This document shows, piece by piece, positions 12,949 through 56,238 of a stretch of DNA of 64,000 nt (positions within the stretch are counted from its first letter, which is position 1; the number at the start of each line of letters is the position of its first letter). The notes beneath the pieces were generated by a model. It saw only the letters and a program-made list of their open reading frames with translations, was not told where the DNA came from and ran no database searches. The translations under genes were made by a program, and so were the position numbers. The stretch comes from Saccostrea echinata (Eukaryota): positions 434,001 through 498,000 of the forward strand of contig NW_026889786.1 of the NCBI RefSeq assembly GCF_033153115.1, given 5' to 3'.

Positions 12949-13197
12949 GCAGGTACTCGTGGTCACACGAAGGACGCAGTGTTGTTTGCATACCTTGTCT
13001 AAAAAAGGGGAGGAGTTTCAAATCTAAATTTACTTCTTGCTTCAAATGATAAAACTTTGATGATTACGTACATATTTAATTGTCAATCAAGATACATTCT
13101 ACTCAGATCGACTCTTTATCCTCTAACGAACGGATCCTCATTCTGTGAAATGTGAACACATATCAGAACATCACTGAGGTTTAAAAAAGATTCAATC

Positions 13198-13599
13198 ATG
13201 GCTCAAGGACTGAAAGATCTGCATTTGAAACTTACCCGTAACGGAAAAATTGAAAAGGCTGCAATTGTTGACAAAACAGGGAAAATTGTCGCATGCAGTA
13301 AGAATTTTACTTTAACTGACTGTGATATTAACGCGATCAACTGTGCCCTGTCTGGACAATATTCTTCACTTGTGAAAATGAAATTTGGAAAAGAAATGTT
13401 CACGTGTTTTCGGCAATGTGAAGATAAAGACACTCTTGTGGGAAAAAACGATGAAGAGATTTTGGTCGCCCATCGCAGGAACGGTTTTCTGGTGGTTGGA
13501 ATTGGTTATTCAGATACGCCTGGTTCTTGCTTGTATGAGGTTACACACTTTGCCAAGAGATTCAACTCCAAAAGATACAGCTGCAAAATTGCTTCTTAG
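13198..13599 (+). CDS. Divergent profilin-family protein (133 aa, uninterrupted CDS)
   Basis: Profilin length; N-terminal pattern L..G.IEKAAI.D..G..VA.S..F.LT; C-terminal LVVG.....PG.C...V...A. Confidence 0.75.
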   Translation: MAQGLKDLHLKLTRNGKIEKAAIVDKTGKIVACSKNFTLTDCDINAINCALSGQYSSLVKMKFGKEMFTCFRQCEDKDTLVGKNDEEILVAHRRNGFLVVGIGYSDTPGSCLYEVTHFAKRFNSKRYSCKIAS

Positions 13600-26666: not shown

Positions 26667-29600
26667 TTATACACATGTTTCAGCATTTGAAGTGACCAAG
26701 TTTCTCTGACAATCGGCATTATCCACCAGGATTTCTCGCTGTTTGGGAGTTCTACTGCTGACGTATGGTTTCTTTTTAATGAAAGACTTCAAGCATTTTC
26801 CTATTGGTACAAAGATCAGTAGGACACCAGACAATGCAATAAAAATTCCTCCCGCCAAAAATGTATGATCATAGGAGCCTGACATGTCATACAGAAAACC
26901 TGTAATCAGAAATAAAGAGTTTCAATCACAGATAAACCTATACAGTCAAACTTGTCTAACCCAAATGGTGTGTATTAAGAAAACTTGCATATTAAAATGA
27001 AAATTGTAGTACCTTTTGGTAAATTTAATCATTTAAAATCTCATCTAATCCAGAATGTTGTCTAGTCTGGAAAAATTCTTTTGAATCAGTGGTGTCCTGA
27101 TTAGACAAGTATTGGGACTTTCAATAATATTGAAGTGAAGAGGTGAATTTATCCATTTGAAGAGGCATTTAGAATTATATCCAATAATTTATTTACCGGT
27201 AGCCAATTATGAAATTTGGAGCAACAATTTCAATCATTGAAACGATGATGAATTGCCTCCCGTTAGCCCTTTATTAGAAGCCCCGAGTTTTACAGTACAT
27301 GCATATATGTTGAATACCAAGGATATATCAAGTGTGTTTATTTCAAACAGCATTACAAATACCATTCTAAAGATTGATATTTTGCATCCTCAAATATCTC
27401 TTTTTTCCTCAGCCCCAGGAAGTTTTTTGCAAGGTTTCATTTTAATTCTAATTAGTTCATCAATTCATTCATGATATGACAAATGCTACTTAGATGACTA
27501 AAAAATCAGTCACATTACAGCTATTTATCATATGATTAGATTTTTTGTCATTTTATTTTTTTTATTTCAAGAAAAAAAAAAAATCATGTTACTTTCATCC
27601 CAGTCCATATCATGGCACATAGAATTAAATCAACATCATGATAGCTAATTGATCCATGGTTATGGACAATGTATCTATCTAAAAGAAAACAAGTGTTTCA
27701 ATGCTGCTAAGGGTATTTGTCAAACATCAACTTATTACAATTTCTTTCATAAAAATGCCTTTAAAATTCAATCAGATAAATTACCAGGTAATCCCATGTT
27801 TGAAGGGATTCTAGTCAAATTGATAAAGGTGTGGCAGGCAGACAGGTTTCATCGCCGGTGGACAGATAGCTCAGTTGGTAGAGTACCTGAATGGGTGGAG
27901 ATTCAGGGGGCCCAGGTTCGAATCCTGGTCTGGTTCATCACATTTTTCTCCTCTCTGGTTACAAAGGTGTGATATGATTTTTGATGCAGCCTTATGCTTA
28001 CAACTTGGATGCATGACTTTGAGTTAACATTACGCCATATTTAAATGTATACCTCCCAATTCTGTATGGGAGACATAATTGAAATTCAGAAATGCTTAAA
28101 GCTTAATTGAATACTGCTTTCAGTATTCTGTGAGAGTTGGTATTCATGGGTTTCTTTCACTGATAAGAATAAATGGAATTTAATTGGTTCCTGAAAGAAA
28201 ATAATAGAAGCATTTAACTTACCAGCCACAGGAGGTCCTATAATATTGGCTAATCCCTGCATCATCATGGTTAGTCCATAGGAATTAGTCAGCTTATCAA
28301 TCCCAACAATTTCCACCAGAATCACAGTACTCAATGCATAGTTGGCACTGATAAAGAATCCAAATAGTCCTGCAATTATACACAGTGGTATGAAAGACAT
28401 GAACCATGGCACAACCATCACAGCTAACCCTGAGAACATGATGGACACTCCATAGAGCAAAGTCAGATCTATATTCTTATCCCCTATAAACCCATACATA
28501 ATCTGCCCAAAGGTATTCACAATTCCAAGGGCTGAGATAATGAAAGCTGGATTTTCTATTCCCTCTTCTTTAGCAATGTCATTCAAAAACACATATGGAA
28601 CATCATACCAGAAGTACAAGATGAAGTTGGATACCACAAACAGAAGAAAGGAAGGATTTTTCATGATTTTGAAATCAAACATCAACTTGAACATTTTCTT
28701 GATGTGTTTGGATAATCTCAGGAGCCTTGGTATAGGAAAACAGTCATCATCTTCTTCATCGGAACTGTCATCTAATATCTCTAGGTGTAGTTCTGGACAA
28801 CTCCTAGATCTGATCTGTGGAGTTGATGTAAATTTTGTCAAACTCCTTCTATAGAAAAGGTCTTTTCTGTACAGTGGATAATATTGCATAATTGTCTGTG
28901 GGGAAGGGTTTTTCTTCTGGGAGCTAGGCTTTTTCTTGTGTCTTTTCTGTACCACTTGATCTACAACATTCCCATCTTCATCAGCAAAGACAATATGTTC
29001 ATCACTTGTGACCATTAGTTGGTTGCTAGGTGATATGTCTGGATAAGATGTATTATTTTTTGTGTTCTCTGCATCCAAGTTTTGAAAGTATTGCTTCAGG
29101 ATATGCTGCAAGTTGCTGCCATTTTTTCTTATGTCACTTAACATCTCAATTGGAATATTTCTGGATTTCTTTATAAATGTAGGAAGTTGTACCTGAGAGT
29201 GACTAAGCTGCTCTATCTGAGCTAAATCTTCTGTTTCACTATCCGAACTCAGCTCATCTGAATTACTGACATGACGACTGCGATTGTGCAGACTAGCTTT
29301 TGAAATCGTTCTTGACATATTTTCAAATTTTTCTAAATTTCTTCTCCATTCTTCCATAGGAGTAAATTCCAGAGGTCTCATAAGGGCTCCACAAACGACC
29401 AAATTTAAAGTCACGCCACTAAGAATGACAAAAGATCCTCTCCATCCATACTCTTCAATGAGGAACTCTAAAAATGGAGCAAATGCAAATGTACCAATTC
29501 CAGACCCACATACAGATAACCCAGTGGCCAAGGATCGTTTCTTCTCAAAATAGTAGGCCACAATGACCAGTGAATTAACATACCCAATAGAGAGCCCAAA

Positions 29601-30056
29601 TCCTGCAACGAAACCAAAAGTAAAACAGATAAGGCCAATGGAATCCACAAAGGCACTAGCCAAGACTCCAACACTTGTGATCAATCCTCCAAGAATCTGG
29701 GCTTTTCTGCATCCTAATTTAGTTACAATGGCACTGGCTATAGGTCCACAAACCAGAGGGATTCCATAAAATAAGGATGCAATAATAGAGGTAACACCTT
29801 TACTCTGTCCGAAAACATCCGACAGCTCCGTAAAAAGTACACCAAATGATAATGTCAGTCCATCACTTATCACCATAACAAAGAAAGCACTGAGGACGAT
29901 TACCCATCCATAACCCCCATCTGGAGCAGGGGGCATTGAAATGGAGGAGTCACTTGATGAGGAAGATCCTTCAGATGAGGAAGCAGTATTGGAAGACACA
30001 CTACTCCTGGATTCATGACGCTTTCTTGATACTTGATCTTGCTCCTGTTCAAGCAT
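26667..30056 (-). CDS. SLC16/MCT monocarboxylate transporter with long central loop, copy A, 688 aa; complement(join(26667..26899,28223..30056))
   Basis: PDGGYGWV signature, YFEKKRSLATG, MFS hydrophobic helices, GPPVAG|FLYD across a phase-1 GT-AG intron; ends ETCV (class I PDZ-type motif). Confidence 0.93.
27788..27963 (+). mobile_element. tRNA-derived interspersed repeat in MCT-A intron
   Basis: A-box tagctcagttgg and B-box ggttcgaatcc, with no intact acceptor or anticodon stems. Confidence 0.7.
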
Positions 30057-30236
30057 TTTTTAGTTAAAAGGCTCTCAAGATAAAGGTTATTGCTATTGAA
30101 AAATTCTGCTAGGCTGATTGAAAATATAGAGGAAAAGCACAGTTTAGTCATTGGTCGATGCAGATGTAGAATGCTCTGGACACAGAGAGTATAATCCCAT
30201 AAATGACCAGCCATATGATTCCAATGTGGGAATATT
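30057..30236 (-). other. 5' leader part of MCT-A coding exon (acceptor ttttgcag|aatatt) containing upstream open frames
   Basis: A homologous acceptor and leader exist in copy B (47254) and copy C (54314). Confidence 0.65.
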
Positions 30237-31065
30237 CTGCAAAATGAAATAAGAATTATTATTATGTCACATTATATCTAGAGAATTACCTGTTCATAAA
30301 ACTGACCTTAAAATCTTTCCACAGCCTTGGAGTAATGCTAAGTTTTAAGCTTTGTTCTTTAATATTAAGTAAGTCTGCAGAGCTAAAAGTAGATAATGGA
30401 GACATCTACCAGTGTCAGCACATTTAACTGTGTGGAGAATTAAAGGACAGACTTAACAATTAATTGTTGATTTTGTCTTTTAAACTTACCAATACTAAGA
30501 AGTTAAACATATTCAGATCCTAGTTTTTCAACTGACAAATGGTTTCAAATATTTTGATATACTTTATATTAAATTTTATAAAGGGAAAAGAGGTTGCAGT
30601 TGCTGATTACACTAGCTGCCATCAATATTCAAAGGAAATGTCATTTAAACTGTGCACAGTGACCTGACAACAGAACTAAGGCTTACACATCAAGTGTTTT
30701 CATAATCCCTTTTAAAATCAAAGGTAACGCCAATAGTACAATATGCCCTTAATTAATCAATAAAATCAATTTCATTTCAAAGTTTCAAGGCCTATACCTC
30801 TTCATGTAGTGAATTAGAAGATTTAAAAGTAAAAAGACCATGAAAAGAATTTTTAGGGAAATCTAATAAAACAAAAATGAACGCACATGTCGAGGAAGAA
30901 AATTATGTACACTGTCACACGAGATGTTTTTAAATTTGAAAAATATGTTTTCAAAGAAGGAAATCAAAGAACTAAAAACCAACTAAAAATATTTTAATAC
31001 TTTCATTAATTTAGCACAAATCTGTTTGGCATACAGTTTCCACATCCCATGTCTAAATAAATAAA

Positions 31066-31524
31066 ACAAGAAGTCTGTGAGCCAATGTTCACTAATAAAA
31101 CCACTGCTCTGATGTGAATACACAAGTTCAGTTATGGACAGACACAGTGATAATCAGGAAATTGACATCAGATTTGTACAAGAATGAATCCAAACATATG
31201 GCATGCCTAAACAATGAGTGTGTTAAAATTTCAAGCACCTGCAATGAGTAGTTGCTGAGAAAACTGTGACCAAAATTTGTTATGTATGGTATGGACAGAC
31301 ACACAGATAAACAGGAAGTTGACATTGGATTTGTACAAAAATGAATCCCACTACCTGGTATATGGCATACCTAAACAAAGAGTGTGCTAAAATTTCAAGC
31401 ATCTCCAATGAGTAGTTGCTGAGAAAACTGCGACCAAAATTTGTTACAGACAGACACACAGACAGACAGACAAACAAGGGTAAAACAGTATATCCCCCTC
31501 ATCTTCGGAGCGGGGGTATAAAAA
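31066..31524 (-). mobile_element. HINE-like element with two tandem units
   Basis: acaagaagtctgtgagcc start, duplicated caggaa-ttgacat-gatttgtacaa-aatgaatcc block, (caga)n, hairpin cccctcatcttcggagcgggggtataaaaa. Confidence 0.7.
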
Positions 31525-31649
31525 CTTAACTGCCCAAACTTGAAAATCCTATTTTGTAGGGGTGGAGGTGGGGTGGGGGCCTTACAGCAGCAAAAAGGGA
31601 GGATGTTTACTACAGCAAAAGACCATACTCATAAAAAAGTGAGGGGAGG

Positions 31650-31813
31650 GGCCTTTCATTTGAGCTATCTTGAATCCCCTTCAACCAAGATTGCTTTGTG
31701 GTAAGTTTTGTTGAAAATAGCACAGTGGTTCTGAAGAAGAATTCAAAAATGTAAAAAGGCAGACAGATGGACAACAAACTTTGATCAGAACTTTCATCTC
31801 AGGTAAGCTAAAA
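31650..31813 (-). mobile_element. HINE fragment
   Basis: ttgaatccccttcaaccaag...gtggttctgaagaaga...cagacagatggac...tcaggtaagctaaaa. Confidence 0.6.
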
Positions 31814-33429
31814 CGGGTGAAATCTCAACTAAGCATAGTAATGAAGGATCTCAAAATCATGCTTGTCAATTTGTCATAAAACCAGTATTCATTTTAATTA
31901 ACAACATGCAAAGATGCCACACTTAAAGAAAATTTACAATTTTCCTCTTTTTCATTTTAATTTCATCAAATTCTAGATAAACTGCTTACTAAATGGAAAA
32001 CACATGCTTTAGAGTACAAGCTAGCCTATCATTGAATTTTCTCCTTTCAAATATCAGAGACATCTAACCATGTTAAATATCACAATAATTAACCTACTCA
32101 AATTTATCTCTCATTTAGATGTAAAGATAAAATGATGAAGACCTCTGAATAACAAACCTTGTAATGGTTAACCATTACATGAAATCCCACCATTGAGAAA
32201 TGGAATCACGTTTCATCTTCAAGTTAAGCACTGGAAATTCTATCCTAACTATAGGACACGGATTAACCTTTAATTTGCACTGATCTGATTTACAAGAGTT
32301 TTTATTACAGAACTACAATATTAAAAGAATTCGTTCATCTCTGAAGCTTAGATAAGCTTACATTTTATCAGTATCTGATGTTAAGGATATTGGCAATTGT
32401 TCTAGATCACCCACAGAGAAAATATACATGTCATCAATAGAGGATAAAATTAAAACAAGCAGGATGTTGTTATAATCAAGCAATAATCATGATGCAATAA
32501 CCATCATCAAAGACAGAATGCTGCAAAGTTCAAAACAGCGATGACCATTCGATATTTGACATGCATGTACCGGTAATGATGATAAATAATATTATAATTT
32601 TATATGTATATATATAAGCTTATATGATATAGTAAAGGTAATCGATTACAAAATCTGTAATCCGTTAGTCCAAAAAATAAAAAATAAAAATGAAATGTGT
32701 ATTTTTGAACACAATTTCAAAATTTCATATCAAATTTTTTTAAAAGATGAATAAATAAACCCTGATCCTTGATGCTATGGTTTTGAAGTATCTAATTAAT
32801 AAGCTAATTAAAGATAATTAAGGTTCTCCTGGTATTGATATAATTGCAGCAATTGGTCAGTTTGTGAAATGTTAGTTACTGTTTAAACAGCGCATCAGTG
32901 CTCAGCCTATCCTTAATTTCTTAATGAGTGGAAAATAATGAAATCACTTTCGGGTACTGTAAATGTTATAGTGAACCTGCTTTCAATGCGTATCTTACCC
33001 AGTGTACCAAGTATACTTTGCGTTTGTCAATCAAATAAGATTTTCAACTAAAATATGTAATTTATCAATCGTTCTGATGATAGCGACAATACAAGATGCG
33101 ACAAGGTATGACTTGAGAAGTTTTTTTCATATGTTCTTGATATATATCAGACATGTTTCATATTTTTTTAAATATAGAAATTATATTCATAATTGTATGT
33201 TTAAACATAATCAGAATATTACTGATGACTTTCCTAGTTATTTGTGTATATCAATACAAATAAACCTTACTTGAGGAAAAAAAAAACTACTGGTATATGT
33301 ATCTATTAAGAATACCAATCCATATGTATTTTGCTAAGATTAACCAGTTAATTGGTTGGATCATTATGTGCGGTTAATCGATTGGCAATTTTGTAATTGA
33401 TTGCCATCCCAAATATATATATATATAAT

Positions 33430-34888: not shown

Positions 34889-37070
34889 ATGACACTTTTT
34901 GTGATCAAGCAGCCATGGGTAGGAGAGAGCTATATGCGGACTTCGGACGGTGGCTTGAGACGATTGGTTGATGAAGAAGAAAAACAAAGTAAATGAAAAT
35001 ATTATTAAGTGAATTAAAACCATAACTTTTTAAAGAATCTTTACTACCACTGGTACAACATGCTAATTTTATTTTGAATTATAAACATAAAAACATTTAG
35101 CCTTTTAAAAGTCTGTTTTCATAAGGGCAATCTTGGATGAGTGAAATCTGATGGATGAATGAAAACTTTATAATTCACACCATTTAAACTTTAGTAGTTT
35201 TTTCAAACATCACAGAAGTATGCTATTGATTTATGTTCCTGTCTCTACTGACTTAAAATTTATTTTTAGACTTTAAAGGCCTTAAAAAGGAAATATATGT
35301 CAATAAGGGAGCTTAGATACATGTAGGTCTTCTATACACTTCTAATAATCAAACTGATAAGAGTAGACTAGAGACATAAATTACAAATGTTATTTATGTC
35401 CCTGGGTAGACATACTCAAGGCTTTCAAAAAGATTAGAAACAGAAAGTACTCTTACAAAAATAGGAGGTACCTTGTAGAAGCAATTTTTTATTAAATCAA
35501 ATTTTGTTATCAATGTTGAAATTTTTAAAAAAAATGTTATAAAATTTTTCTCCATCAAATATTTTTGCCAGTTCAGTCATGACTTCACTCAGGTAAAAGT
35601 ACAGGGTAGCGGCAGATTTTGAAAGGTCTGCATCCTGATCTGCTTGCATTGCAAAGCTAAAAGTTAGATAGATCAGTAAAAGTTACATTTATTTATTTGT
35701 TGTTTTACATTTTTATCACAACTGCAGCCCTGCACTTTTTAGTTCCCCCAGTAATTATCCTCTTACTTGATAATGTATCATCTCTTTTGGGTATCACTAT
35801 GTTTGATATATTTTGCAATGAACTCTTTTTCAATATATTTACATTTGCAAATGTTTTCTTTCATATAACGCTATTAAAAGCAACGCGTATCTATATCCGT
35901 ATAAACACGGGTTCCTCACGTCATAAATGTTTCAACGTAATTTCTCGGTGATGTCATAAAGGGTCAACGCGCAATCAATAGATCAAACTTAAAATTGTGC
36001 CGTTGAATTTGAAAAATAAAACATTTCATGCGTTAAAGATTATAATCAGGCAAATATAAATATGAATAAGTCACAAATGTAAATATAAGTAATAAGGTAT
36101 CATTTTAAAACATCTACCGGGATATATTCCGATAGATGTTTAAAAATGACACCTTATTTCTTAATTGTCAAGTCATAATTGCATTGGAAATCTATACATA
36201 TAACACGTTATATAATATGTAAATATTGTCTCCCAATATCATATTGATGTAAAAGAGATAACTGTCACATGGACAGAAATTAAAAAAATATGCATTTATT
36301 GATTGCACAGACTAAAAAGAAACATCTCCAAAATGAAATGAATCTGATGCTCTGTTATTTTCATTAAAAATTTTCATAACTCTGCATATTAAAAATAGTT
36401 TTCGCATATCGGCCTAATTATTGAATAATTCAACCAGGTAAGATACTTTTGCTTAGCAACCTTCTGAACAGCAGTATCAGTTTATCATGGGACTGTTTAA
36501 CTTTAAGGACATAATTTTTTCTTCATGGTTCAAATCAGCTGTTCATTGTTGACAAAAGCAAAGACAGTTATAAATAGCAATCAATCAACCGTGCAGTTAC
36601 TGTGCTCCAAATAATACACTGGGATTGAACGAAAAAAAAAAAAAAACTTACCCCATGTCACCTCAGAGAACGTCACATTAAACAGCGTGTGTTACAAGAA
36701 CTGTCCTTTAGAAAAATTTGGCTCTGTGAAAGTGGTTTCTGTGCAGAACGTTGGAGATTCAGCCTCTTTGCGCAGACAGTAACCTTTTGACCTATCGTTG
36801 AAATTATTAGAGTTATTCCCCTTTGCGAATTAGTGCACTTTATAAAAAGACGGTTTATGTATGTTTTCAATATTTCACATTCTATTATATATTAACCAAA
36901 TAATAATAATACTATAAAAAAAAATCACAGGAGCAGAGACAGAACAGATAATTTATGTCAATAAATCTTTAATCATTTTTTTTTCATTATTTATATTGTC
37001 ATATTTTCTTTTATTTATTTGTATTTTCATTTTTGCACTTGTAGCTAAAAATGTCCTACTCAGCCCTAAT

Positions 37071-39679: not shown

Positions 39680-40709
39680 CAAGCCACGATCAAACTGTAC
39701 GATCCTCTCCCATTAGGAGAGAGTTTACACATGTGCAGACTCCGGACAGTGCATTGAGACGATTCTGCATAGTATGAATCCATGAAACTGAATACATGCC
39801 CCCATGTAGCGCATTGTCCGCATATAGTGGACAAGAAGAAATATAGGGTAGCTCTAGTGATACCACTGACTTACCAGCATACGTTTATCCATGCGGTATT
39901 TTTCTGTTTTTTCTTTGGCAATATATCTCACGCGTATAGGAATAAATAACAAATAAATAATAAATATGACACGTCTTGACATCCTACAATTTGGGGGGAA
40001 AATACCTGCTCATCATCTTTTCACATTGCAAAGGTATTCGAAATGTAGCATCATAGCTTACCGAGACAAATTATCATTTACATTACAAACTCTTGATAAT
40101 CAGAAGCGATAATTCGACTTGATTTCTCACAAATCAGATCATTTCATCACTTGTAGTACACAGTGTTTGCCTACCGCCCCAGAGGTACATATGCTCCATG
40201 TGCACTAGTGGTACTGGTAAATTCTCTACATTAGTGCATTATATTGAGATCCTCAGCTGCAGGGTAGTTACCGATTACTCTATTATAGCAAAAATATTAT
40301 CAATCAATTTGTTAAATTAAAAAAATTAATAAAAACTCGTCTAGAACTGTAATTATAGATATAGATATCATCAGATCAGATAGGGTTCATCAACTGTAAC
40401 AAATGTCAATCTCGGAAATATATTGCCCAAAATCCTATTTTGTAGGGAGACGGGGAGGGGGAGACTTTCCTAAATCAATTTTCTTCAGATAGATGACTCT
40501 CCTTACTGTTTAAAAAAGGGTCCATGTTTCCTGGGAAGGTGCCAAGGTTAGTTTTTCCTTACTGTTTTAAGAGGGGTCATTGTTTCCGAGGGGAGTTCCA
40601 AGGTTATTTTTTGTTACCACCCACCCCGACCCCCCTCAAGAACCGTCTATGAACAAGTATTTTTGAGCGTTTTGAATTTATTACACAGATACACAACAAG
40701 GGAACAAAA

Positions 40710-42440
40710 ATGGAGGGAGAATCGTCAAATGTTTCCAGTTGCCTACTGGAGGGTCTCCGTAAAATGTACAAGTCTCAGCGGTTCACTGACGTCATCGTCA
40801 ACGTGGAGAACCAGTCTTTTCGGTGTCATCGGGTCATACTGTCGTCTGTTTCTCCGTATTTCGACGCCATGTTTTCTTCTGGAATGAAAGAATCCAACTC
40901 CATGGAAATAAATCTTCATAAAACCAACTCTAAATTATTTCACGACATCCTTCAGTATGTGTATTTAGGAAAAGACATCGTGAAACCAGATACTGTTGGG
41001 GATCTTCTGCAGATTTCCTCAATGCTTCAAATCACGTGTCTGCAGATCAGATGTGAAGAATACATAATAAGAAACATAGATGTTAACAACTGCTTAGGAG
41101 TCTGGAAACTAGGAAGGTCACATAACATTGAAAAACTAGTAGACAATAGCCACCCTTTTATTTTAAATAACTTCGATGACGTTTGGGAAAGCAGTGACTT
41201 TTTGAAACTTGAAAAGGACGAATTGGAATGCCTTATTCGTGACGAAAGGCTAAACGTTTCTTGCGAAGAGGTCGTCTGCAAGGCTCTTTTTCACTGGATA
41301 GCAGCAGACGAGATTCAAAGGAAAATAGCATTTCCGGAGCTCTTCGAACACATCAGACTCACCTCAGTCAGCCTTGAATTCCTACTCGATCAAGTTGATC
41401 AACATCCTATGATTCTTGAACATAGTGCTTGTCAAACTTCGGTGAAAAATGCCATCAAATACCATGCGTTGCCGTCAAGGCGCCAAGAGCTAATTTGGGA
41501 CGAGAAACCGTATCGGAATAACACAGAGCAGGAACAGATTCTGGCAATCGTGGGAAAGCGCCTTTCGAGCAATGATTCAATTGTTACAGAATTTGTCGGA
41601 TACAGTTTCGCAAACAAAAAATGGGTTGCACTTCAACCTATCGTTGCAGACATCGGAGAAGACTTCGCAGTTTGCTCTTATGGTCACGACATCTTCATAA
41701 CCGGCGGGACAACAAATATGACCAGTTGTATAAGATATTCTGCAAAATTGTCGCAGTGGCGGGAACGATCTACCATGCAGTGTGGTCGATACAGACATTC
41801 AATGGTGGCAATGTCGGACTCGTTGTTTGTGTTTGGTGGCTACAACTTTGGAACCTTAAACAGCGTCGAACAATATGACATGGGAACTGAAGCATGGAAA
41901 CAAGTTGGGGAACTACATTTTGGTGTTGACAGAAGCTCTGCAGCGGTGATAGGCGAAAAGGTCTACATCTTTGGAGGCAGTCTCGGCTTTACCGAGGAAA
42001 CCGCGGGAATACAGTGCTTTAACACCAAGACTTTCACGTGCTCATTGATTGCTAACCTTCCCAGACCCCCTAAATTCAGCAGTGCTATAAAATTTGCTGA
42101 CATAATATATGTCGTATGTGATAATGGAGAGGTGATATCCTTCAGTGCTAATGAAGGGCATCGTGTAATCCACAGACTCAAGAGCTTCTCGAGGAAGAAC
42201 TTCGGTCTCTTCATCGATAAAGGAACACCATGCATCGTTGGAGGGAACCAGAACGTGTTTTCTGACGAAGATAAGCTTTGTTCTGATGTGATCAAGATCG
42301 CAGAAGAGCCCAGCACGCATAATAGCCTTGAACTCCCATTTCAAATGGAGGTCATCAACTGTGTGCGTACTGTTGTTGCGAGAAAGTATCCACTTTTGGA
42401 GTGCGAGTCCTTAATACGAGAATTTGTGGACGTGGACTGA
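40710..42440 (+). CDS. BTB-BACK-Kelch protein (KLHL24-like family), 576 aa, single coding exon
   Basis: BTB FTDVIVNVENQSFRCHRVILSSVSPYFDAMFSSGMKES; BACK NCLGVW..LNVSCEEVV..WI..LFEHIRL; Kelch repeats IFITGG, LFVFGG..VEQYD..W, VYIFGG. Confidence 0.93.
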   Translation: MEGESSNVSSCLLEGLRKMYKSQRFTDVIVNVENQSFRCHRVILSSVSPYFDAMFSSGMKESNSMEINLHKTNSKLFHDILQYVYLGKDIVKPDTVGDLLQISSMLQITCLQIRCEEYIIRNIDVNNCLGVWKLGRSHNIEKLVDNSHPFILNNFDDVWESSDFLKLEKDELECLIRDERLNVSCEEVVCKALFHWIAADEIQRKIAFPELFEHIRLTSVSLEFLLDQVDQHPMILEHSACQTSVKNAIKYHALPSRRQELIWDEKPYRNNTEQEQILAIVGKRLSSNDSIVTEFVGYSFANKKWVALQPIVADIGEDFAVCSYGHDIFITGGTTNMTSCIRYSAKLSQWRERSTMQCGRYRHSMVAMSDSLFVFGGYNFGTLNSVEQYDMGTEAWKQVGELHFGVDRSSAAVIGEKVYIFGGSLGFTEETAGIQCFNTKTFTCSLIANLPRPPKFSSAIKFADIIYVVCDNGEVISFSANEGHRVIHRLKSFSRKNFGLFIDKGTPCIVGGNQNVFSDEDKLCSDVIKIAEEPSTHNSLELPFQMEVINCVRTVVARKYPLLECESLIREFVDVD

Positions 42441-44584: not shown

Positions 44585-47099
44585 TTAAGCTTTCACCAAG
44601 ATTTCTCGCCGTTTTGGAGTTCTTTTGCTGAGAGATCTTTTTCTGTAAATGAATGATTTTAAGCGTTTTCCAACTGGTAATAAGATCAGTAGTAGACCGG
44701 AAAAGGAGAAAAAGCTTCCCCCGACCAGGAAGGTGTGGTCATAGGAACCCGACAGGTCATAAAGTAAACCTGTGAACACGAAAATATTTCTACATACTAG
44801 TTCTTCGAAGAAAAAAGCATATAATAATTGTCATTTTTAAGGGAACAACTTCTAATTAACTTCTAATTAAGCAGACTCTCGGCTGAGGACAATTTAACGT
44901 ATATTCGAAATCTGTTTGTTTATTTGATGAAATTTATTACAAAGTACTGATAATATATAGAGTATTTTTCAATTCTTTAATAAGCAAATAAATTAATTGA
45001 TGTATTTTGCTTTGCCATACCTAGAGATGAATTACACGGAAAACAATTAAATGATATTTCTTAACTGAAAAATGTTTTAAGCACTTCATCATAACTGCGT
45101 CATAAGGGCCTACATGTACTGGGTATTTGTTTGTTTGTTTGTTTGTTTTTTAATAAAAAAAAGACCATTAAAACAGCAAATTCTTTTTATAAATCTCTTT
45201 AACTTAATAGAGATGAAAACAAAAATAAGAGGAACAATTACCAGCTACAGGAGGTCCTATGATATTGGCTAATCCCTGCATCATCATGGTTAGTCCATAG
45301 GAATTGGTCAGCTTATCAATCCCAACAATTTCCACCAGAATCACGGTATCCAGTGCATAGCTGGCGCTAACAAAGAACCCAAACAGGCTCGCAATAATGC
45401 AAAGTGGTACAAAAGACAGGAACCACGGAACAATCATTACACACAATCCTGAGAGCATGATCGACACTCCATAGAGCAAGGTCAGGTCTATGTTTCTGTC
45501 ACCTATAAATCCATATACAATCTGTCCAAAGGTATTCACAATTCCAAGGATTGAAATAATGAAGGCCGGATCTTCTATCCCCCCTTCTATAGCAATATCA
45601 TTCAGAAATACATATGGTACATCGTACCAGAAGTACGATATGAAGTTGGAAATCAGAAACATAAGAAAGAATGGGTTTTTCATGATTTTGAAATCAAACA
45701 TCAACTTGAACATTTTCTTGATGTGTTTGGATAATCTCAGGAGTCTTGGTATAGAAGAATCATTGTCATCGTCTTCATCATCGCTTTCATCTAACACCTC
45801 TGGGTGTATTGCTGGACAGCTCTTTGGTCGGTTCTTTGGAGTGACTGTAAATCTTTTAAGACTTCTTCTGTAAAATAAGTCTTTTCTGAACAGAGGATAA
45901 TACTGTATAATTGTTCGTCGATTTAGGGTCTTCCTCCGTACAAGAGATTTTTTCTTGCTTCTCTTTCTTACTATGTCATCTTTTACAAGTCTGTCTTTCT
46001 CGTGACAGGCATTTTGATCATCGTTTGCAACTACATTTATCATTTCCTGGCCCGGAAGTCTGTCTTTATTAGGTGCACAGGTATTTCCTGTGGTGTGAAC
46101 GTTGATTGTATCCATGCTTTGAAAATATTTCTTCAAGATGTGCTGCGAATTCTTACCATTTCTTCGTACAACACATAACATGTCAAGTGGAATATTCTTG
46201 GATTTATTTGTAAAAGTAGGCAATTGAACCATTGAATGACAACGCTGTCTTTTCTCAGCTAAGCATTTGTTATCATTGTGATAATCTAAGTTCAGCATAT
46301 CCGAACTGTTAGCGAGGCAATTTCGATTGTGCAGTTTAGATTCCGATATTGTTTTCGCCATATTTTCAAATTTTTCTAAATTTCTTTTCCATTCTTCCAA
46401 AGGAGTAAATTCCAAAGGTCTCATCAGTGCTCCACAAACGACTAAATTCAATGTGATGGCACTGAGAATAACAAAGGTACCTCTCCATCCATACTCTTCA
46501 ATGAGGAATTCCAAAAGTGGAGCAAACACAAAGGTACCGATACCAGATCCACAAACAGACAACCCGGACGCCAGAGATCGCTTCTTTTCAAAATAGTACG
46601 CCACAAGGACTGCAGACGTAATATACCCAATAGAGAGCCCGAATCCTGCGACAAAACCAAGGGTAAAACAGATAAGGCCAATGGAATCCACAAAGGCACT
46701 AGCCAAGACTCCAACACTTGTGATCAATCCTCCAAGAATCTGCGCTTTTCTGCATCCTAATTTAGTTACAATGGCACTGGCTATAGGTCCACAAATCATG
46801 GGGATTCCATAGAATAGGGATGCAATTATAGATGTTACACTTTTACTCTGCTTGAAAACATCTGACAACTCTGTAAAGAGTACACCAAATGATAGGGAAA
46901 ATCCTTCGCTAATAAGCATTACAAAGAAAGAACTAATAACAATCACCCAGCCATAGCCACCGTCTGGGGCCGGGGGCAGCGAAATAGAAGGGTCAAATAA
47001 TGAGGGAATTCCATCAGGCGGGGCAGTGATAAGAGATGACGCGCTGTATCCGGATTCAGCGTCCTTTCTTAATGCCTGATCCTGCTTCTCTTTAAGCAT
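44585..47099 (-). CDS. SLC16/MCT transporter copy B, 680 aa; complement(join(44585..44769,45242..47099))
   Basis: Paralog of copy A with the same intron position and phase; the ATG at 47099 aligns with the copy-A start (the ORF-track start at 47111 is TTG). Confidence 0.9.
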
Positions 47100-48648
47100 T
47101 TCTTTCTTCAAAGGCTTTCGGCTTGTAGGTTAAAAAGGGTTCGCTGATGAAAAAATACAAGATATGCTGTTTAATCATTGTTCAATGCAGCTGAAGGGAA
47201 TGGAAACCCTATCTCCATAAATGGACATTCTTGTGTTTCCATTATCGGAATACTCTGCAAACATAAGAAAAATACTTAAATGCAAATGGTCACAGATTTC
47301 GATGTTAAGAAATTCCAATCTCCAAACTTAACTATACATTAAATAAACTGACCAAAACATGTACCAATGAAGATCAGAAGATTTTCCATGTTAATAACGT
47401 CTCTACTAAGATCTGTAAAATCAGAAATATTCTCATCCACTTTGGGTACTTGTATTTTTTATGACCATGGGGGTTTAGGAATGGTCTTTAGCTTCATATT
47501 TTAGATCACTTAACATAATCACCTCTAGCTTCGACATCCATGTCCATCTTCAAGAGTAATTCATGTTAACTCTCTTCAAGACACTCAATTGTAAAATGCC
47601 GACCAATTGTTTAAATATTTACTAAAAAAATTTTCCATGAAGCTATACATTTACAATGTATATGCTGTACATAAAAACAAGTATTAAAAAGGCTTTAATT
47701 TGCTTTTGCTTCACTATCTAGACAACAGGAAAATGAAAACATCAGCTTCAACATTTCCTGTTGTTTGTTGGATATCTCTGCAAGTAGGAAAAAAACAGTC
47801 AAGGATGTACGTGGATCAACGCCACCCGTCACCATGCTCCAAGTTAGCTTTAATTTCGAAACAAAGGAGCAAAGACGTGCAACTGCATGGAAATTACCAT
47901 ATTATCTAATCATAACGTCATACATCATGTGTTTATGGAAAAAGGGAATTTTGACGAGCTCACTGTGTCAATCTTTCGAAGATTTAGTTCTTCAATATAC
48001 TCTAAATTCGAAGCCATTGTGGTTAAGTTAGGACTTATGTTTGTGGAGGGGGTGGGAGGTCCACACCGGCTTATAAAAAATTCTGACTCCGATACTTCTT
48101 TTGTACCCCAAAGTTTTGTGTTCATTTTTTTCCACAAAATGTGGAAATAGAATGGACACAAAACCAGTGGCTTGCGACGATATTTGTGGGTGTGATCGTA
48201 TTTACTATTAATTTTATTGTAACCCCTCTCCCCTCCCCCAAGGGAAAATTCTAGAATTTGCCGTTAGGAAAAATAGTATTGGATAACTATTACAAGTAGA
48301 TAGCTAATAAAATTTCATTTAAACTTACTTTCTGTTGAACGGGGGAGGGGCAATTTCCCTATTCAGGACCCAAGGTAAATTTCAAAATTATGTAAAGAAA
48401 TTTACTTTTTTTTCGTCAGGAATACCTTTCTTTAACATTCAAGAAAAGCACATTTGCTCAAAAGGTTGACCTTTGGATAAGAAGTTTGCCTCTCCAGAGA
48501 ATAAAATAAGACATTTATTTAGCAGTGCTTAGGCTCTATAAAGTGCTCACATTCAAGATCACGTGGCTTATGCCTTTTTTGCATCTTGGATTGTTTGGAC
48601 ATTTTTTTATATGCAGGTTTTTCCAGCAATTATGTATGCAATTAGGGG

Positions 48649-49145
48649 CAGGGTTCGACACTAACCTTAGTCCGTTAGTCTCAGACTAATACATTTTCAT
48701 TCGGACTAATAAAATATGTGGCTAATTAGTCCGAACGGACCAATAAAAATTTCTGAAAAACAATATGAATAAATTACCGATGTCCGATTCTCGACAACTT
48801 TTACTGGAAAACCCCGCGTGTATTTTTAGATTTCTAGCTTTTGGCGGGTAGTTACGCAATGCAGCGCTTAATTTTTCGACTGATCGATATGAAGTATAAG
48901 GTTTTAGCGATCATGATTTAGTATGACACTTTTAAGAAAGATGTTGGACGTTTTGGATGTAATGGAAAGACATAAAAAAAAAAAAAACGAGATCGGGAAT
49001 ACGATCGCATACTTGCTGATTGCGAGATTTCAATGAATCTGTGGAATATATTTCACGTAAATACTTTGTTTATTTCAAAAAATAATACGTATATTAATTG
49101 TCACGTTAAATTAATGTTAAAAACATTGATGTTTCTTTCTTTCTT

Positions 49146-49178
<33 letters not shown>

Positions 49179-49269
49179 ACGGACTAATAAAATCGCGTGC
49201 GGACTAGTAAACGTAATGAAGCACTAGTCCGGCTGGACTAAAGCCTTAAAAAGTTAGTGTCGAACCCTG
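48649..49269. mobile_element. hAT-like MITE with perfect 17-bp TIR and 6-bp TSD
   Basis: cagggttcgacactaac / gttagtgtcgaaccctg; tagggg on both sides; repeated ggactaa/ttagtcc subterminal motifs. Confidence 0.85.
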
Positions 49270-49823
49270 TAGGGGTACGTTTGTTAGAGGGATGTCTTTA
49301 ATGATACTGAAATATTTTAGACCACCACAAGTGCATGTCCAAGGAAGGAAGTTTTCCGCCTGCAAATCATAATTCCTGTCATTTTACGAGTAACATATTT
49401 TTTCATACTTGTCCTCACTTGTAAATCTCTGCTTTAGTTCATCAATTTCATCACTTTATCATCATCAATTGGTAGAGGAAAAGCCTTGGCCCTTATTTTA
49501 CAAATTTCCTCGTTTGGGTTAGATGAAACCGCAGAAGTGTTCATGTGGTAAATTCTAACAATAGGATATATGAATTTCAAAAACTTCATGTAAAAGTTTT
49601 ATGCAACTTTCTGTAAAGTTTGACCTTGGATCCATCACAAAATTATATATTTAAAAAAAATTCGTTTTGTTCATTTTTTTTTTTTTAAAAATCTAATGAG
49701 CATTTGATGTCTGTGAAAAAAAAATTCTGGTCTCGAAGACAACTTCCTTGCTGGAAGAGCTCCCAAGTAGCCAGGTGGATTGTCTTCTAAAACCTCCTCA
49801 TACTTGATATATGGAAGACTCTC

Positions 49824-50078
49824 CAGTGGCGGATCCAGGAATTTCATAATGGAGGGGTGCAGTAGAAAACGGGGGGTCTGCATTGAAGCCCCCCGTGGGT
49901 CTAGGGCAAAGCCCTGGTGGGGGTCCGGGGGCGAAGCCCCCGAAAGCTGACGAATTCTTACAAATAAGAGATGTGTTTTTCTTGATTTTAGGATAATGGA
50001 CATATGAGTTCTAAATACAAAAAATTCAAATGGGGGGGGGGGGGCATGCGCCAGGCGCGCTGGCCCTGGATCAGCCTT
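49824..50078. mobile_element. MITE (CAGTGGCGGATCCAGG family); copy at 56884-57145
   Basis: cagtggcggatccagg ... cctggatcagcc; actctc on both flanks. Confidence 0.65.
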
Positions 50079-50359
50079 TACTCTCACTCAAAATTCAGAG
50101 AAATATTTGTGAAACATACTATCTGTAAAGAACTGGAAATCAGTTGTATAATATCCAGCATAGTTTTCAGCATTGCTTGCTTTAAAATGTGACATTTTAT
50201 TCAAAATACACTCCGTGAAATACATGTACACATTTATACATAAAATTCACACAAAGGAACATAAAAAAAATATTCTTATGAATTCAATTCATTAAAATAA
50301 AGAAAATTGTTTTCATTGATTAAATTCTGTTTACAGAAAACGAAATGAATAGACCTATA

Positions 50360-51379
50360 TCACCTGATACAACCCTTAATTACACTGGGTCTAACTCCTA
50401 AACTTCTTCTTTGTTGAGCAGAACTGTTGAATTTATCAGCTTGTTGAAACACAGGAGTGAATGGTTTAGAGAGACCAGAGAGATTGTACCTGGAAACAAA
50501 ACTCTGTCGTCTGCTTGTGGACCCTGAACTCTGGACGGAGGGCTCCCACTGAAAGAAGCCACACCCATTTCTGTCTGTTGTCTTCACCCCCGCACAAGAA
50601 AAGAAAAATCGACCAAGGTTTGGTCCTGGGGATTGCACCATTCTCCTCTTTGACCGACGTCCACATTTACACAGGGGTGGTGTTGCTTTCATTGTTGATG
50701 ACATACTGGTGTCCGGGGTCTTAAGAATTGAATTGCTTGAGTTTATAGTAGAATTGGTAACATTTAAAGCAGATTTTTGACATAGTGAAAACTGAAAACT
50801 TGGACTAGGAACCTTAAATTGTCCACCATGTTCTACACTTGAAACTTGGGAATTGACACAAATTTTTCCACTTTTATCTGTGTTACTTTTGTTTGAGTCT
50901 TTAATAGAATTTTTATTTGGTTCACTTGCTTTACTCATATTGCCATTTCTATTAGATAAGCCACTGCCGGCTTTCATTTGCACACTGAACGACTCAACAG
51001 ATCTGCAGTTACCATCCATGTAAATCTGCTTCATTGAAAATCCTTTGGAGACAATATGCCTGGTTGGAGTTTCTCTCTGTGTGGCATTTTTCACCTTTGA
51101 ATCAGCAGACATGGATTCTCTGCTCCTTTTCAATAGCCTTGGAGATTTTCTGACAGGGGAGGTAACATGAGTCGGGGTTTTCTTTAAATGTCTGGGTGAT
51201 CTTCTAAGCACTGGCTTTAAGAAGCTGTGGGAGTTTTTGTCTGGTGTGGCCATCATAACTTCCTCTTCTTTACCCATGTCAGACATTCTCCTACGCTTTG
51301 GTAATGGGCTCCTGGTTGGACTTAATGGTTTCTTCGAGTTCAACAGATTCTCAACTGTGATCGGACTCGTGGATTTACT
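50360..51379 (-). pseudogene. ERI2: Orphan duplicate of the ERI2 terminal exon (GRF zinc finger)
   Basis: Same translation as 57427-58446, but its upstream intron is cut at the duplication junction 51646. Confidence 0.8.
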
Positions 51380-51584
51380 CTAATAAAAACAAGAGGAACT
51401 TTATTTGAAACACATCTTTATTGACAACATATACATGCATAGCATAAAGGTTAAAAAGACATACACTGTCTGCTGATATTTAACCAGTAAAATAAGGATG
51501 TAAAAAGGGATCACGCTAATATACTTAAGTAAAGAACTCCTTTCAGATTTTCTTTTCTATTTTTGAGAGATGATTTTTACTATT

Positions 51585-54159
51585 TTACTTTTTAATACAT
51601 GTATGTAAAAAAAAAAAATTGGTCCCTTTCTGTTGTGACATCCTGTAAGCTTTCACCAAGATTTCTCGCCGTTTTGGAGTTCTTTTGCTGAGAGATCTTT
51701 TTCTGTAAATGAATGATTTTAAGCGTTTTCCAACTGGTAATAAGATCAGTAGTAGACCGGAAAAGGAGAAAAAGCTTCCCCCGACCAGGAAGGTGTGGTC
51801 ATAGGAACCCGACAGGTCATAAAGTAAACCTGTGAACACGAAAATATTTCTACATACTAGTTCTTCGAAGAAAAAAGCATATAATAATTGTCATTTTTAA
51901 GGGAACAACTTCTAATTAACTTCTAATTAAGCAGACTCTCGGCTGAGGACAATTTAACGTATATTCGAAATCTGTTTGTTTATTTGATGAAATTTATTAC
52001 AAAGTACTGATAATATATAGAGTATTTTTCAATTCTTTAATAAGCAAATAAATTAATTGATGTATTTTGCTTTGCCATACCTAGAGATGAATTACACGGA
52101 AAACAATTAAATGATATTTCTTAACTGAAAAATGTTTTAAGCACTTCATCATAACTGCGTCATAAGGGCCTACATGTACTGGGTATTTGTTTGTTTGTTT
52201 GTTTGTTTTTTAATAAAAAAAAGACCATTAAAACAGCAAATTCTTTTTATAAATCTCTTTAACTTAATAGAGATGAAAACAAAAATAAGAGGAACAATTA
52301 CCAGCTACAGGAGGTCCTATGATATTGGCTAATCCCTGCATCATCATGGTTATTCCATAGGAATTGGTCAGCTTATCAATCCCAACAATTTCCACCAGAA
52401 TCACGGTATCCAGTGCATAGCTGGCGCTAACAAAGAACCCAAACAGGCTCGCAATAATGCAAAGTGGTACAAAAGACAGGAACCACGGAACAATCATTAC
52501 ACACAATCCTGAGAGCATGATCGACACTCCATAGAGCAAGGTCAGGTCTATGTTTCTGTCACCTATAAATCCATATACAATCTGTCCAAAGGTATTCACA
52601 ATTCCAAGGATTGAAATAATGAAGGCCGGATCTTCTATCCCCCCTTCTATAGCAATATCATTCAGAAATACATATGGTACATCGTACCAGAAGTACGATA
52701 TGAAGTTGGAAATCAGAAACATAAGAAAGAATGGGTTTTTCATGATTTTGAAATCAAACATCAACTTGAACATTTTCTTGATGTGTTTGGATAATCTCAG
52801 GAGTCTTGGTATAGAAGAATCATTGTCATCGTCTTCATCATCGCTTTCATCTAACACCTCTGGGTGTATTGCTGGACAGCTCTTTGGTCGGTTCTTTGGA
52901 GTGACTGTAAATCTTTTAAGACTTCTTCTGTAAAATAAGTCTTTTCTGAACAGAGGATAATACTGTATAATTGTTCGTCGATTTAGGGTCTTCCTCCGTA
53001 CAAGAGATTTTTTCTTGCTTCTCTTTCTTACTATGTCATCTTTTACAAGTCTGTCTTTCTCGTGACAGGCATTTTGATCATCGTTTGCAACTACATTTAT
53101 CATTTCCTGGCCCGGAAGTCTGTCTTTATTAGGTGCACAGGTATTTCCTGTGGTGTGAACGTTGATTGTATCCATGCTTTGAAAATATTTCTTCAAGATG
53201 TGCTGCGAATTCTTACCATTTCTTCGTACAACACATAACATGTCAAGTGGAATATTCTTGGATTTATTTGTAAAAGTAGGCAATTGAACCATTGAATGAC
53301 AACGCTGTCTTTTCTCAGCTAAGCATTTGTTATCATTGTGATAATCTAAGTTCAGCATATCCGAACTGTTAGCGAGGCAATTTCGATTGTGCAGTTTAGA
53401 TTCCGATATTGTTTTCGCCATATTTTCAAATTTTTCTAAATTTCTTTTCCATTCTTCCAAAGGAGTAAATTCCAAAGGTCTCATCAGTGCTCCACAAACG
53501 ACTAAATTCAATGTGATGGCACTGAGAATAACAAAGGTACCTCTCCATCCATACTCTTCAATGAGGAATTCCAAAAGTGGAGCAAACACAAAGGTACCGA
53601 TACCAGATCCACAAACAGACAACCCGGACGCCAGAGATCGCTTCTTTTCAAAATAGTACGCCACAAGGACTGCAGACGTAATATACCCAATAGAGAGCCC
53701 GAATCCTGCGACAAAACCAAGGGTAAAACAGATAAGGCCAATGGAATCCACAAAGGCACTAGCCAAGACTCCAACACTTGTGATCAATCCTCCAAGAATC
53801 TGCGCTTTTCTGCATCCTAATTTAGTTACAATGGCACTGGCTATAGGTCCACAAATCATGGGGATTCCATAGAATAGGGATGCAATTATAGATGTTACAC
53901 TTTTACTCTGCTTGAAAACATCTGACAACTCTGTAAAGAGTACACCAAATGATAGGGAAAATCCTTCGCTAATAAGCATTACAAAGAAAGAACTAATAAC
54001 AATCACCCAGCCATAGCCACCGTCTGGGGCCGGGGGCAGCGAAATAGAAGGGTCAAATAATGAGGGAATTCCATCAGGCGGGGCAGTGATAAGAGATGAC
54101 GCGCTGTATCCGGATTCAGCGTCCTTTCTTAATGCCTGATCCTGCTTCTCTTTAAGCAT
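51585..54159 (-). CDS. SLC16/MCT transporter copy C, 700 aa, chimeric C-terminus; complement(join(51585..51829,52302..54159))
   Basis: Same as copy B except YGLT->YGIT (52353) and loss of the stop at the junction, which adds YRMSQQKGTNFFFLHTCIKK. Confidence 0.75.
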
Positions 54160-56205
54160 TTCTTTCTTCAAAGGCTTTCGGCTTGTAGGTTAAAAAGGGT
54201 TCGCTGATGAAAAAATACAAGATATGCTGTTTAATCATTGTTCAATGCAGCTGAAGGGAATGGAAACCCTATCTCCATAAATGGACATTCTTGTGTTTCC
54301 ATTATCGGAATACTCTGCAAACATAAGAAAAATACTTAAATGCAAATGGTCACAGATTTCGATGTTAAGAAATTCCAATCTCCAAACTTAACTATACATT
54401 AAATAAACTGACCAAAACATGTACCAATGAAGATCAGAAGATTTTCCATGTTAATAACGTCTCTACTAAGATCTGTAAAATCAGAAATATTCTCATCCAC
54501 TTTGGGTACTTGTATTTTTTATGACCATGGGGGTTTAGGAATGGTCTTTAGCTTCATATTTTAGATCACTTAACATAATCACCTCTAGCTTCGACATCCA
54601 TGTCCATCTTCAAGAGTAATTCATGTTAACTCTCTTCAAGACACTCAATTGTAAAATGCCGACCAATTGTTTAAATATTTACTAAAAAAATTTTCCATGA
54701 AGCTATACATTTACAATGTATATGCTGTACATAAAAACAAGTATTAAAAAGGCTTTAATTTGCTTTTGCTTCACTATCTAGACAACAGGAAAATGAAAAC
54801 ATCAGCTTCAACATTTCCTGTTGTTTGTTGGATATCTCTGCAAGTAGGAAAAAAACAGTCAAGGATGTACGTGGATCAACGCCACCCGTCACCATGCTCC
54901 AAGTTAGCTTTAATTTCGAAACAAAGGAGCAAAGACGTGCAACTGCATGGAAATTACCATATTATCTAATCATAACGTCATACATCATGTGTTTATGGAA
55001 AAAGGGAATTTTGACGAGCTCACTGTGTCAATCTTTCGAAGATTTAGTTCTTCAATATACTCTAAATTCGAAGCCATTGTGGTTAAGTTAGGACTTATGT
55101 TTGTGGAGGGGGTGGGAGGTCCACACCGGCTTATAAAAAATTCTGACTCCGATACTTCTTTTGTACCCCAAAGTTTTGTGTTCATTTTTTTCCACAAAAT
55201 GTGGAAATAGAATGGACACAAAACCAGTGGCTTGCGACGATATTTGTGGGTGTGATCGTATTTACTATTAATTTTATTGTAACCCCTCTCCCCTCCCCCA
55301 AGGGAAAATTCTAGAATTTGCCGTTAGGAAAAATAGTATTGGATAACTATTACAAGTAGATAGCTAATAAAATTTCATTTAAACTTACTTTCTGTTGAAC
55401 GGGGGAGGGGCAATTTCCCTATTCAGGACCCAAGGTAAATTTCAAAATTATGTAAAGAAATTTACTTTTTTTTCGTCAGGAATACCTTTCTTTAACATTC
55501 AAGAAAAGCACATTTGCTCAAAAGGTTGACCTTTGGATAAGAAGTTTGCCTCTCCAGAGAATAAAATAAGACATTTATTTAGCAGTGCTTAGGCTCTATA
55601 AAGTGCTCACATTCAAGATCACGTGGCTTATGCCTTTTTTGCATCTTGGATTGTTTGGACATTTTTTTATATGCAGGTTTTTCCAGCAATTATGTATGCA
55701 ATTAGGGGCAGGGTTCGACACTAACCTTAGTCCGTTAGTCTCAGACTAATACATTTTCATTCGGACTAATAAAATATGTGGCTAATTAGTCCGAACGGAC
55801 CAATAAAAATTTCTGAAAAACAATATGAATAAATTACCGATGTCCGATTCTCGACAACTTTTACTGGAAAACCCCGCGTGTATTTTTAGATTTCTAGCTT
55901 TTGGCGGGTAGTTACGCAATGCAGCGCTTAATTTTTCGACTGATCGATATGAAGTATAAGGTTTTAGCGATCATGATTTAGTATGACACTTTTAAGAAAG
56001 ATGTTGGACGTTTTGGATGTAATGGAAAGACATAAAAAAAAAAAAAACGAGATCGGGAATACGATCGCATACTTGCTGATTGCGAGATTTCAATGAATCT
56101 GTGGAATATATTTCACGTAAATACTTTGTTTATTTCAAAAAATAATACGTATATTAATTGTCACGTTAAATTAATGTTAAAAACATTGATGTTTCTTTCT
56201 TTCTT

Positions 56206-56238
<33 letters not shown>

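Follow-up and report, generated by a model that had tools for sequence, protein, structure and literature searches.

The annotated 5′ untranslated region of an SLC16-type monocarboxylate transporter (MCT) gene in Saccostrea echinata contains what, to judge from its sequence, is an unannotated coding element: an upstream open reading frame (uORF) conserved from bivalves to octopus. Codon comparisons between orthologous leaders clearly indicate that a 30-codon core of this uORF is under purifying selection in its own frame. The overlapping, conserved-peptide uORF probably represses MCT translation in cis through leaky scanning and nascent-peptide stalling, a reading to which we assign a probability of roughly 0.6. 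The locus lies within the window, i.e., the whole stretch of 64,000 nucleotides that was analysed (positions 434,001–498,000 of contig NW_026889786.1 in the 923-Mb genome), and its relevant features are as follows.

28223..30056, minus strand: coding part of exon 1 of MCT copy A, by translation an SLC16-type MFS transporter with a long loop
26667..26899, minus strand: last coding exon of MCT copy A; its translation matches the C-terminus of P0001, coordinates counted from translation output
30237..30238, minus strand: splice acceptor AG, opening the large exon that contains leader and uORF along with the greater part of the MCT coding sequence
29900..30214, minus strand: overlapping uORF of 104 aa plus stop, +1 to MCT, ending 154 nt beyond the MCT ATG
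30083..30172, minus strand: conserved core of 30 codons, LHL.RPM.K[LI]C.S.[IL]F[ST]I.LAEF[FY].S..L, holding an internal ATG at 30151

MCT copy A is 100% identical to P0001, a Saccostrea echinata protein of 688 aa that NCBI names monocarboxylate transporter 12-like (PF07690). Its ATG at 30056 has a strong context (A at −3), and its orthologues among the best 120 of 899 relatives begin at the equivalent Met; within the same 120, relatives with a complete N-terminus display a Ser-rich stretch followed by a PDGG.GW motif, and an N-terminal extension resembling the leader peptide is absent. In contigs from four runs, whose RNA nature is a guess, the match stops at 30237 in 4/4 cases, and records from X1, X2, and X8 continue for 15, 86, and 127 letters beyond this end, which fits use of the acceptor. 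The uORF ATG at 30214 and the MCT ATG reside on the same exon and are spanned by single contigs in all four of these presumed RNA runs. A paralogous MCT elsewhere (L005, G000:C10:5710286; 52% identical) has its ATG about 15 nt after an acceptor and lacks the uORF core.

Two further copies, B and C, are 78% identical to copy A. They represent one 7068-bp tandem duplicate with 99.9% identity and 0 differences in 341 nt and, being nearly identical, are treated as one datum. From its sequence the duplicate may be either recent or an assembly artefact; its junction lies where the MCT coding sequence ends, and copy C therefore has a different C-terminal tail. Both leaders have lost the conserved frame.

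47100..47254, minus strand: leader of MCT copy B; acceptor kept, conserved uORF frame wrecked by stops and deletions, no profile match
54160..54314, minus strand: leader of MCT copy C, identical to that of copy B

The duplicate (44586–58713) also carries a last exon resembling a GRF zinc finger (51379–50363 and 58446–57430). The exon at 50363–51379 may belong to an ERI2-type gene; NCBI's name for a Mytilus galloprovincialis MCT relative, P0087, is ‘ERI1 exoribonuclease 2’, a hint that mussels, too, have an ERI2-type gene next to this MCT. Between copies A and B, on the opposite strand, a single ORF of 595 codons (40653–42437, plus strand) looks by eye like a BTB-BACK-Kelch protein, and an intronless ORF of 147 codons (13156–13596, plus strand) is presumably, again by eye, a profilin. 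Interspersed repeats at 31133–31446 and 31620–31800 have very high summed depth in all four runs.

Evidence for selection on the core derives from two orthologous leaders. When metagenomes were scanned with 31 aligned MCTs, 80 loci were obtained, two of which, L012 and L013, include the leader, and these two carry the core. Both cluster with Dreissena and Mya proteins in a midpoint-rooted FastTree phylogeny of the N-terminal MFS half (182 rows; proteins or loci lacking the DG..GW anchor or with fewer than 150 residues after it were left out). In each of them an acceptor is followed by a frame that shares its core with the phase-2 frame in copy A. Across an ungapped 90-nt block (30172–30083), copy A differs from L012 at 27 and from L013 at 26 bases; the encoded core is identical at 24/30 and 23/30 residues between A and the two clam-type loci, and at 26/30 in the remaining pair. 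Codons with synonymous and non-synonymous differences stand at 14:6, 12:7, and 12:4 in the three pairs, and third positions account for 22 of the 36 variable columns (binomial p = 6e-4, from three DNA sequences). Read in the MCT frame, the same block shows worse identity than in the phase-1 frame and contains three stops in each sequence. The start codons are arranged alike in all three leaders available as DNA, with a weak first upstream AUG (C at −3) and a strong MCT AUG (A at −3); in copy A the former is the first in-exon ATG at 30214, with G at +4. Within L012 (1380–1425), a one-base difference in a T-run relative to P0157/P0123 leaves, in place of the overlapping 156-aa uORF, a 99-aa form ending 6 nt before the MCT ATG, reflecting either polymorphism or an assembly error.

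Protein searches extend the family further. A profile built from the three uORFs detected 26 proteins of 68–175 aa among 650 candidates, and a profile of the core added one relative among 7425 candidates, giving 27 in total. Since such searches cover only called ORFs of at least 54 aa, long overlapping forms are favoured, and the relatives are not independent because many are close kin. The one named member is a 68-aa hypothetical protein of Octopus vulgaris (CAI9738542.1), known there from the protein alone. An alignment of 28 sequences reveals 11 invariant columns, a Cys among them, and 8 nearly invariant ones, all confined to residues 16–44 of the copy A peptide. Conservation then drops sharply, from 28/28 at residue 44 to 8/27 by residue 48, and the tails beyond, 15–112 aa in length, are not conserved. 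The start distance is kept at 29–32 residues ahead of the core Met in 19 of 26 relatives, though the sequences there differ widely. The core is located entirely upstream of the MCT AUG, ending 27 nt before it in copy A and farther off in clams. Oyster-clade members of 104 aa (P0148, P0152) start at the Met equivalent to 30214, and longer oyster forms read through the intron pyrimidine tract. In L013/P0122, P0131, P0141, and one allele of the L012 species, the core is kept without overlap and the frame stops before the MCT AUG.

A direct tie to the transporter is provided by the tails, 22 of 26 relatives ending in a +1 read-out of the MCT PDGG.GW motif. When uORF tails and MCT N-termini were fitted as two readings of one DNA (n = 29, of which 14 had no close MCT partner in the comparison set and 5, without a PDGG.GW-type ending, were skipped), incompatible codons numbered 0/54, 0/51, 1/51, 1/53, and 1/54 in five uORFs and 5–12 in five further ones, compared with medians near 60%. 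For example, pairing P0162 with P0011, from the Mytilus clade, leaves 0/37 codons incompatible. Leader DNA and dual-coding fits together imply that the element accompanies this MCT in the oyster, mussel, and clam clades, these labels denoting tree position and not record names. Partners from scallops or gastropods did not turn up, possibly because of the way ORFs were called.

Within the Saccostrea echinata genome there is one clear copy of the core and no free-standing one. The core profile, run over six frames of the window and the loci, scores in copy A (three overlapping copies), L012, and L013 only (E about 1e-23), the next value being 0.08, and finds no match in the leaders of copies B and C. 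Three weak matches in the same genome (L093–L095, E 0.02–0.3) are attributed to chance: no MCT is nearby, L093 and L094 are two copies of a repeat, and L093 shares 46 of 90 nt with the core. A match at one viral-contig locus, antisense to a 1444-aa phage ORF, was likewise rejected as chance. No fusion of the core to a longer protein occurs among 26 matches of 71–2000 aa, a search that is weak for long proteins.

As to where translation of the uORF begins, a survey of 11 consensus donors yielded one candidate exon upstream of the acceptor.

36651..36656, minus strand: candidate donor (GT 36651) and ATG 36656, in frame with the conserved uORF if spliced

The AUG at 36656 has a strong context and would precede the core Met by 30 codons, as in clams and octopus; if this donor is used, the leaky-scanning step is weakened. 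At the other donor put forward in the original prediction, 32998, depth in the bin 32887–33067 is 0.03–0.18 in three runs and 0 in the fourth, compared with 5–19 on the exon, low cover not being proof. An alignable exon shared upstream of A and B was not found, the best stretches measuring 20–32 nt. Residues preceding the first in-exon Met (window 30236–30215) are alike in the oyster and the mussel-type relatives P0124 and P0132, a likeness that suggests a start farther upstream, or at a near-cognate codon, in some transcripts.

According to the mechanism proposed here, some scanning ribosomes would start at the weak upstream AUG and could not then reach the MCT AUG; others would leak past and initiate at the strong MCT AUG. 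Translation of the core would slow the ribosome or halt it shortly ahead of the MCT AUG, and a stalled ribosome might block or queue the leaking 40S subunits. Substrate, pH, or stress could tune the stall and thereby the amount of transporter, the nature of the signal being a guess. The capacity of the ribosome exit tunnel roughly equals the length of a 30-residue core, and elongation arrest is suggested by a conserved block of tunnel length that breaks off sharply at its C-terminal side and is followed by a free tail. The reasoning matches that published for HOL1, AZIN1, and AAP and for the overlapping ORF of DCP2. Against stalling, the core is not placed at the stop codon and has no Pro/Gly-type motif at its end. 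Also against the proposed mechanism, the overlap is not universal, as the four forms stopping ahead of the MCT AUG demonstrate.

It is also possible, if unlikely, that the conserved frame encodes a released microprotein acting in trans, through its 30-residue motif, on the MCT, on a ubiquitin-ligase adaptor, or on some other target, from a bicistronic mRNA like that of chk and CG45092 in flies. Invariant residues including a Cys in bivalves and octopus agree with this, as do the tidy annotated form in Octopus and the second ORF of 165 aa borne by fly chk mRNAs, and a short binding motif in a disordered protein could yield the same conservation pattern. Furthermore, P-M-x-x-x-C-x-x-x-[IL] within the core resembles a BC-box, whose consensus is [APST]-L-x-x-x-C-x-x-x-[AILV] followed by a cullin box; the core has Met at the Leu position in 28/28 sequences, and it has no Pfam match. 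Against a released microprotein, the tails are unrelated and mostly an alternative-frame read-out of the MCT, and because the uORF overlaps the MCT AUG, the two products are mutually exclusive per ribosome. Neither a fold, nor a Pfam family, nor a free-standing genomic copy speaks for an independent protein. AlphaFold assigns the uORF peptide a mean pLDDT of 50 with 0 residues at or above 70, so that no fold is predicted. Pfam returned no match for three of four queries and a chance match for the fourth (E 0.33), with no Ig domain; in the ESM Atlas, residues 1–60 of the copy A uORF retrieved nothing (best 0.76) and the L013 core no usable match. Complex prediction of P0001 with uORF residues 1–50, run without alignments, scored 0.00 in two runs, a value that counts neither for nor against an interaction.

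Control by overlap alone, of the ATF4 uORF2 type or by Hox-like sensing of start stringency, with the peptide constraint caused otherwise, e.g., by a degron that clears the by-product, appears improbable. This reading accounts for the weak upstream and strong main AUG in all three leaders, and start-stringency control has a precedent in Hox mRNAs (PMC8892498). Nevertheless, overlap as such has no need for an invariant block of 30 codons, and four forms hold the core without overlapping. In favour of this reading, overlap is also seen in nine annelid-type loci (L055, L056, L057, L062, L063, L064, L069, L070, L071), of which four fall beside Capitella in the tree. Some 100 nt ahead of the MCT ATG, they keep an open +1 frame with a weak AUG; this frame extends 76 nt over the MCT start, and their +2 frame closes within 6–11 codons. 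In five loci that were compared, all close kin, the peptides show 28 synonymous and 90 non-synonymous differences, from which it follows that the layout is kept and the peptide is not. A faint M-x-x-x-C ... S-N-N likeness to the mollusc core is visible in these frames, without purifying selection, and L063 carries a 15-nt deletion that keeps the frame. Among loci of the insect clade, L018 has a non-overlapping AUG-initiated ORF of 88 codons about 500–220 nt upstream of ATG 2633, recalling the CG45092 layout, and L015 and L016 have +1 overlapping frames that differ by a frameshift.

The original prediction had placed the second product of the leader in another frame, namely a hydrophobic one read in phase 1 from the acceptor, and had likened it to the single-pass partners of MCTs.

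30148..30234, minus strand: hydrophobic phase-1 frame of 28 codons; a shadow of the conserved frame with no sign of selection

Its description was accurate. The frame runs for 28 residues from the acceptor to a TGA at 30150–30148, 91 nt before the MCT ATG; it is hydrophobic in A and not in B (best 19-residue Kyte-Doolittle window 2.03 vs 0.11), and the leader of B keeps the acceptor and is shorter by the 9 nt reported (80 vs 89 nt). The interpretation fared less well. An open frame with a shared stop in copies B and C had been noted, yet it does not go beyond chance: the 24 A/B substitutions split 6/9/9 over codon positions, a flat pattern, and in 20000 neutral simulations at the A/B divergence the frame stayed open in 43% and open with the stop in 18%. 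In 20000 synonymous recodings of the conserved neighbouring frame it stayed open in 100%, and since none of them closed it, its openness is a by-product. Even the apparently conserved TGA consists of the ATG of the core's Pro-Met-Thr (30151) plus the following A. Orthologous leaders had been named as decisive, with stops and missing codon-level conservation counting against the idea, and this is what both leaders available as DNA display: L012 has an internal stop 6 codons past the acceptor and L013 has lost the stop. Identity in the phase-1 frame amounts to 12, 10, and 13 of 29 in the three leader pairs, with 1–2 synonymous vs 16–19 non-synonymous codons. A homologue search with the peptide (30 residues) against 1.84 billion representatives retrieved a single, irrelevant repeat protein at 24% identity, and Pfam gave no match.

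In favour of a single-pass partner, equal hydrophobicity is reached by only 22 of 1028 stop-ending 28-codon frames in non-coding DNA of the window, and candidate consensus donors at 34868 and 39251 would supply an in-frame AUG. Opposed to this are the flat pattern, the openness imposed by the conserved frame, the disrupted clam-type leaders with their few synonymous codons, and the empty searches; the idea is very improbable and already largely refuted. Basigin and embigin are single-pass chaperones of MCTs, and the likeness to them is limited to the notion of a small partner, the mollusc uORF having neither a conserved transmembrane segment nor an Ig domain. A basigin-like membrane micropeptide is thus unsupported: the phase-1 frame lacks conservation, and the selected frame lacks a transmembrane stretch in its first 46 residues (best Kyte-Doolittle window 1.11). 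What does stand from the original prediction is that the leader holds a second selected frame, intact in A and decayed in B and C; it is the phase-2 frame, not the phase-1 frame.

A conserved RNA element or a relic MCT coding exon is a scarcely credible alternative: an MCT frame one base away makes a recoding event conceivable, yet third-position bias is confined to one frame, no conserved RNA fold was found in the three sequences (−3.95 kcal/mol, double change at 1/10 pairs), the motif is not in the N-termini of the best 120 of 899 MCT relatives nor in any fused form, and A, L012, and L013 all have in-frame stops immediately ahead of the MCT ATG.

The uORF offers a short, testable arrest-peptide candidate on a transporter mRNA, with paralogue B as a natural control for loss of the element. 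A further, doubtful speculation is that this is an ancient arrest peptide by which molluscs sense cell acidity or a monocarboxylate (lactate, pyruvate, or a related acid) and adjust how much of the cognate transporter is made. Were this true, central carbon metabolism in animals would have a nascent peptide that senses a metabolite, one that would suit an intertidal life with tolerance of anoxia; to our knowledge, few metabolite-responsive arrest peptides are known in animals. No published description of the mollusc MCT uORF or its core motif was found among the matches listed from the literature on MCT/SLC16, CG3409/CG45092, and mollusc uORFs.

Among the closest known systems are the conserved-peptide uORFs (CPuORFs) of animals, whose computable features are all present here: an upstream AUG in the same exon, purifying selection in the uORF's own frame, and linkage to an orthologous MCT (L012, L013, and the dual-coding fits). 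In two screens, animal CPuORFs are likewise AUG-initiated upstream frames with low non-synonymous change that accompany one main ORF (PMC7530721, PMC2276209); the mollusc uORF differs in having an internal conserved block and a tail that reaches into the main ORF. The screens began from fly, zebrafish, chicken, and human, and their main texts mention neither SLC16, nor molluscs, nor CG3409, although the supplement of PMC7530721 may bear on the point. Sequence-dependent uORFs act mostly through stalling, according to one of these studies (PMC7530721). In HOL1, AZIN1, and AAP, a conserved uORF peptide is combined with leaky scanning, and HOL1 controls a small-molecule importer (PMC11550727). HOL1 and AAP, as described there, stall at the stop codon on short peptides, whereas the mollusc core lies 15–112 residues before the stop, so that the motif is not at the uORF stop as in stop-codon arrest. 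Out-of-frame overlap of the ATF4/DCP2 type is found in copy A and, judged by pattern, in 22/26 relatives. The overlapping ORF of DCP2 runs out of frame across the main AUG and includes a conserved inhibitory or pausing element (10.64898/2026.08.25.746704); that element is situated in the 3′ part inside the main ORF, in contrast to the mollusc core, which is wholly upstream of the MCT AUG.

The system nearest in kind of transporter is fly chk (CG3409), whose dicistronic arrangement with CG45092, mentioned in the original prediction, is confirmed as annotated (PMC5775259; supplement rows of PMC4528330). In the tree, the lophotrochozoan group has the insect long-loop MCTs as its sister clade; word-limited searches yielded no named insect protein with the mollusc profile, chk and CG45092 not being among the sequences compared. 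According to these sources, all chk transcripts carry CG45092, a 165-aa ORF separated by 291 nt and reportedly without a homologue outside Drosophila (PMC5775259, PMC4528330). Both systems therefore pair a long-loop MCT mRNA with a second ORF, which in flies is set apart by this spacer and in copy A overlaps the MCT. The comparison raises the question of whether the chk/CG45092 layout of flies and the overlapping frames of annelids are forms of one old control.
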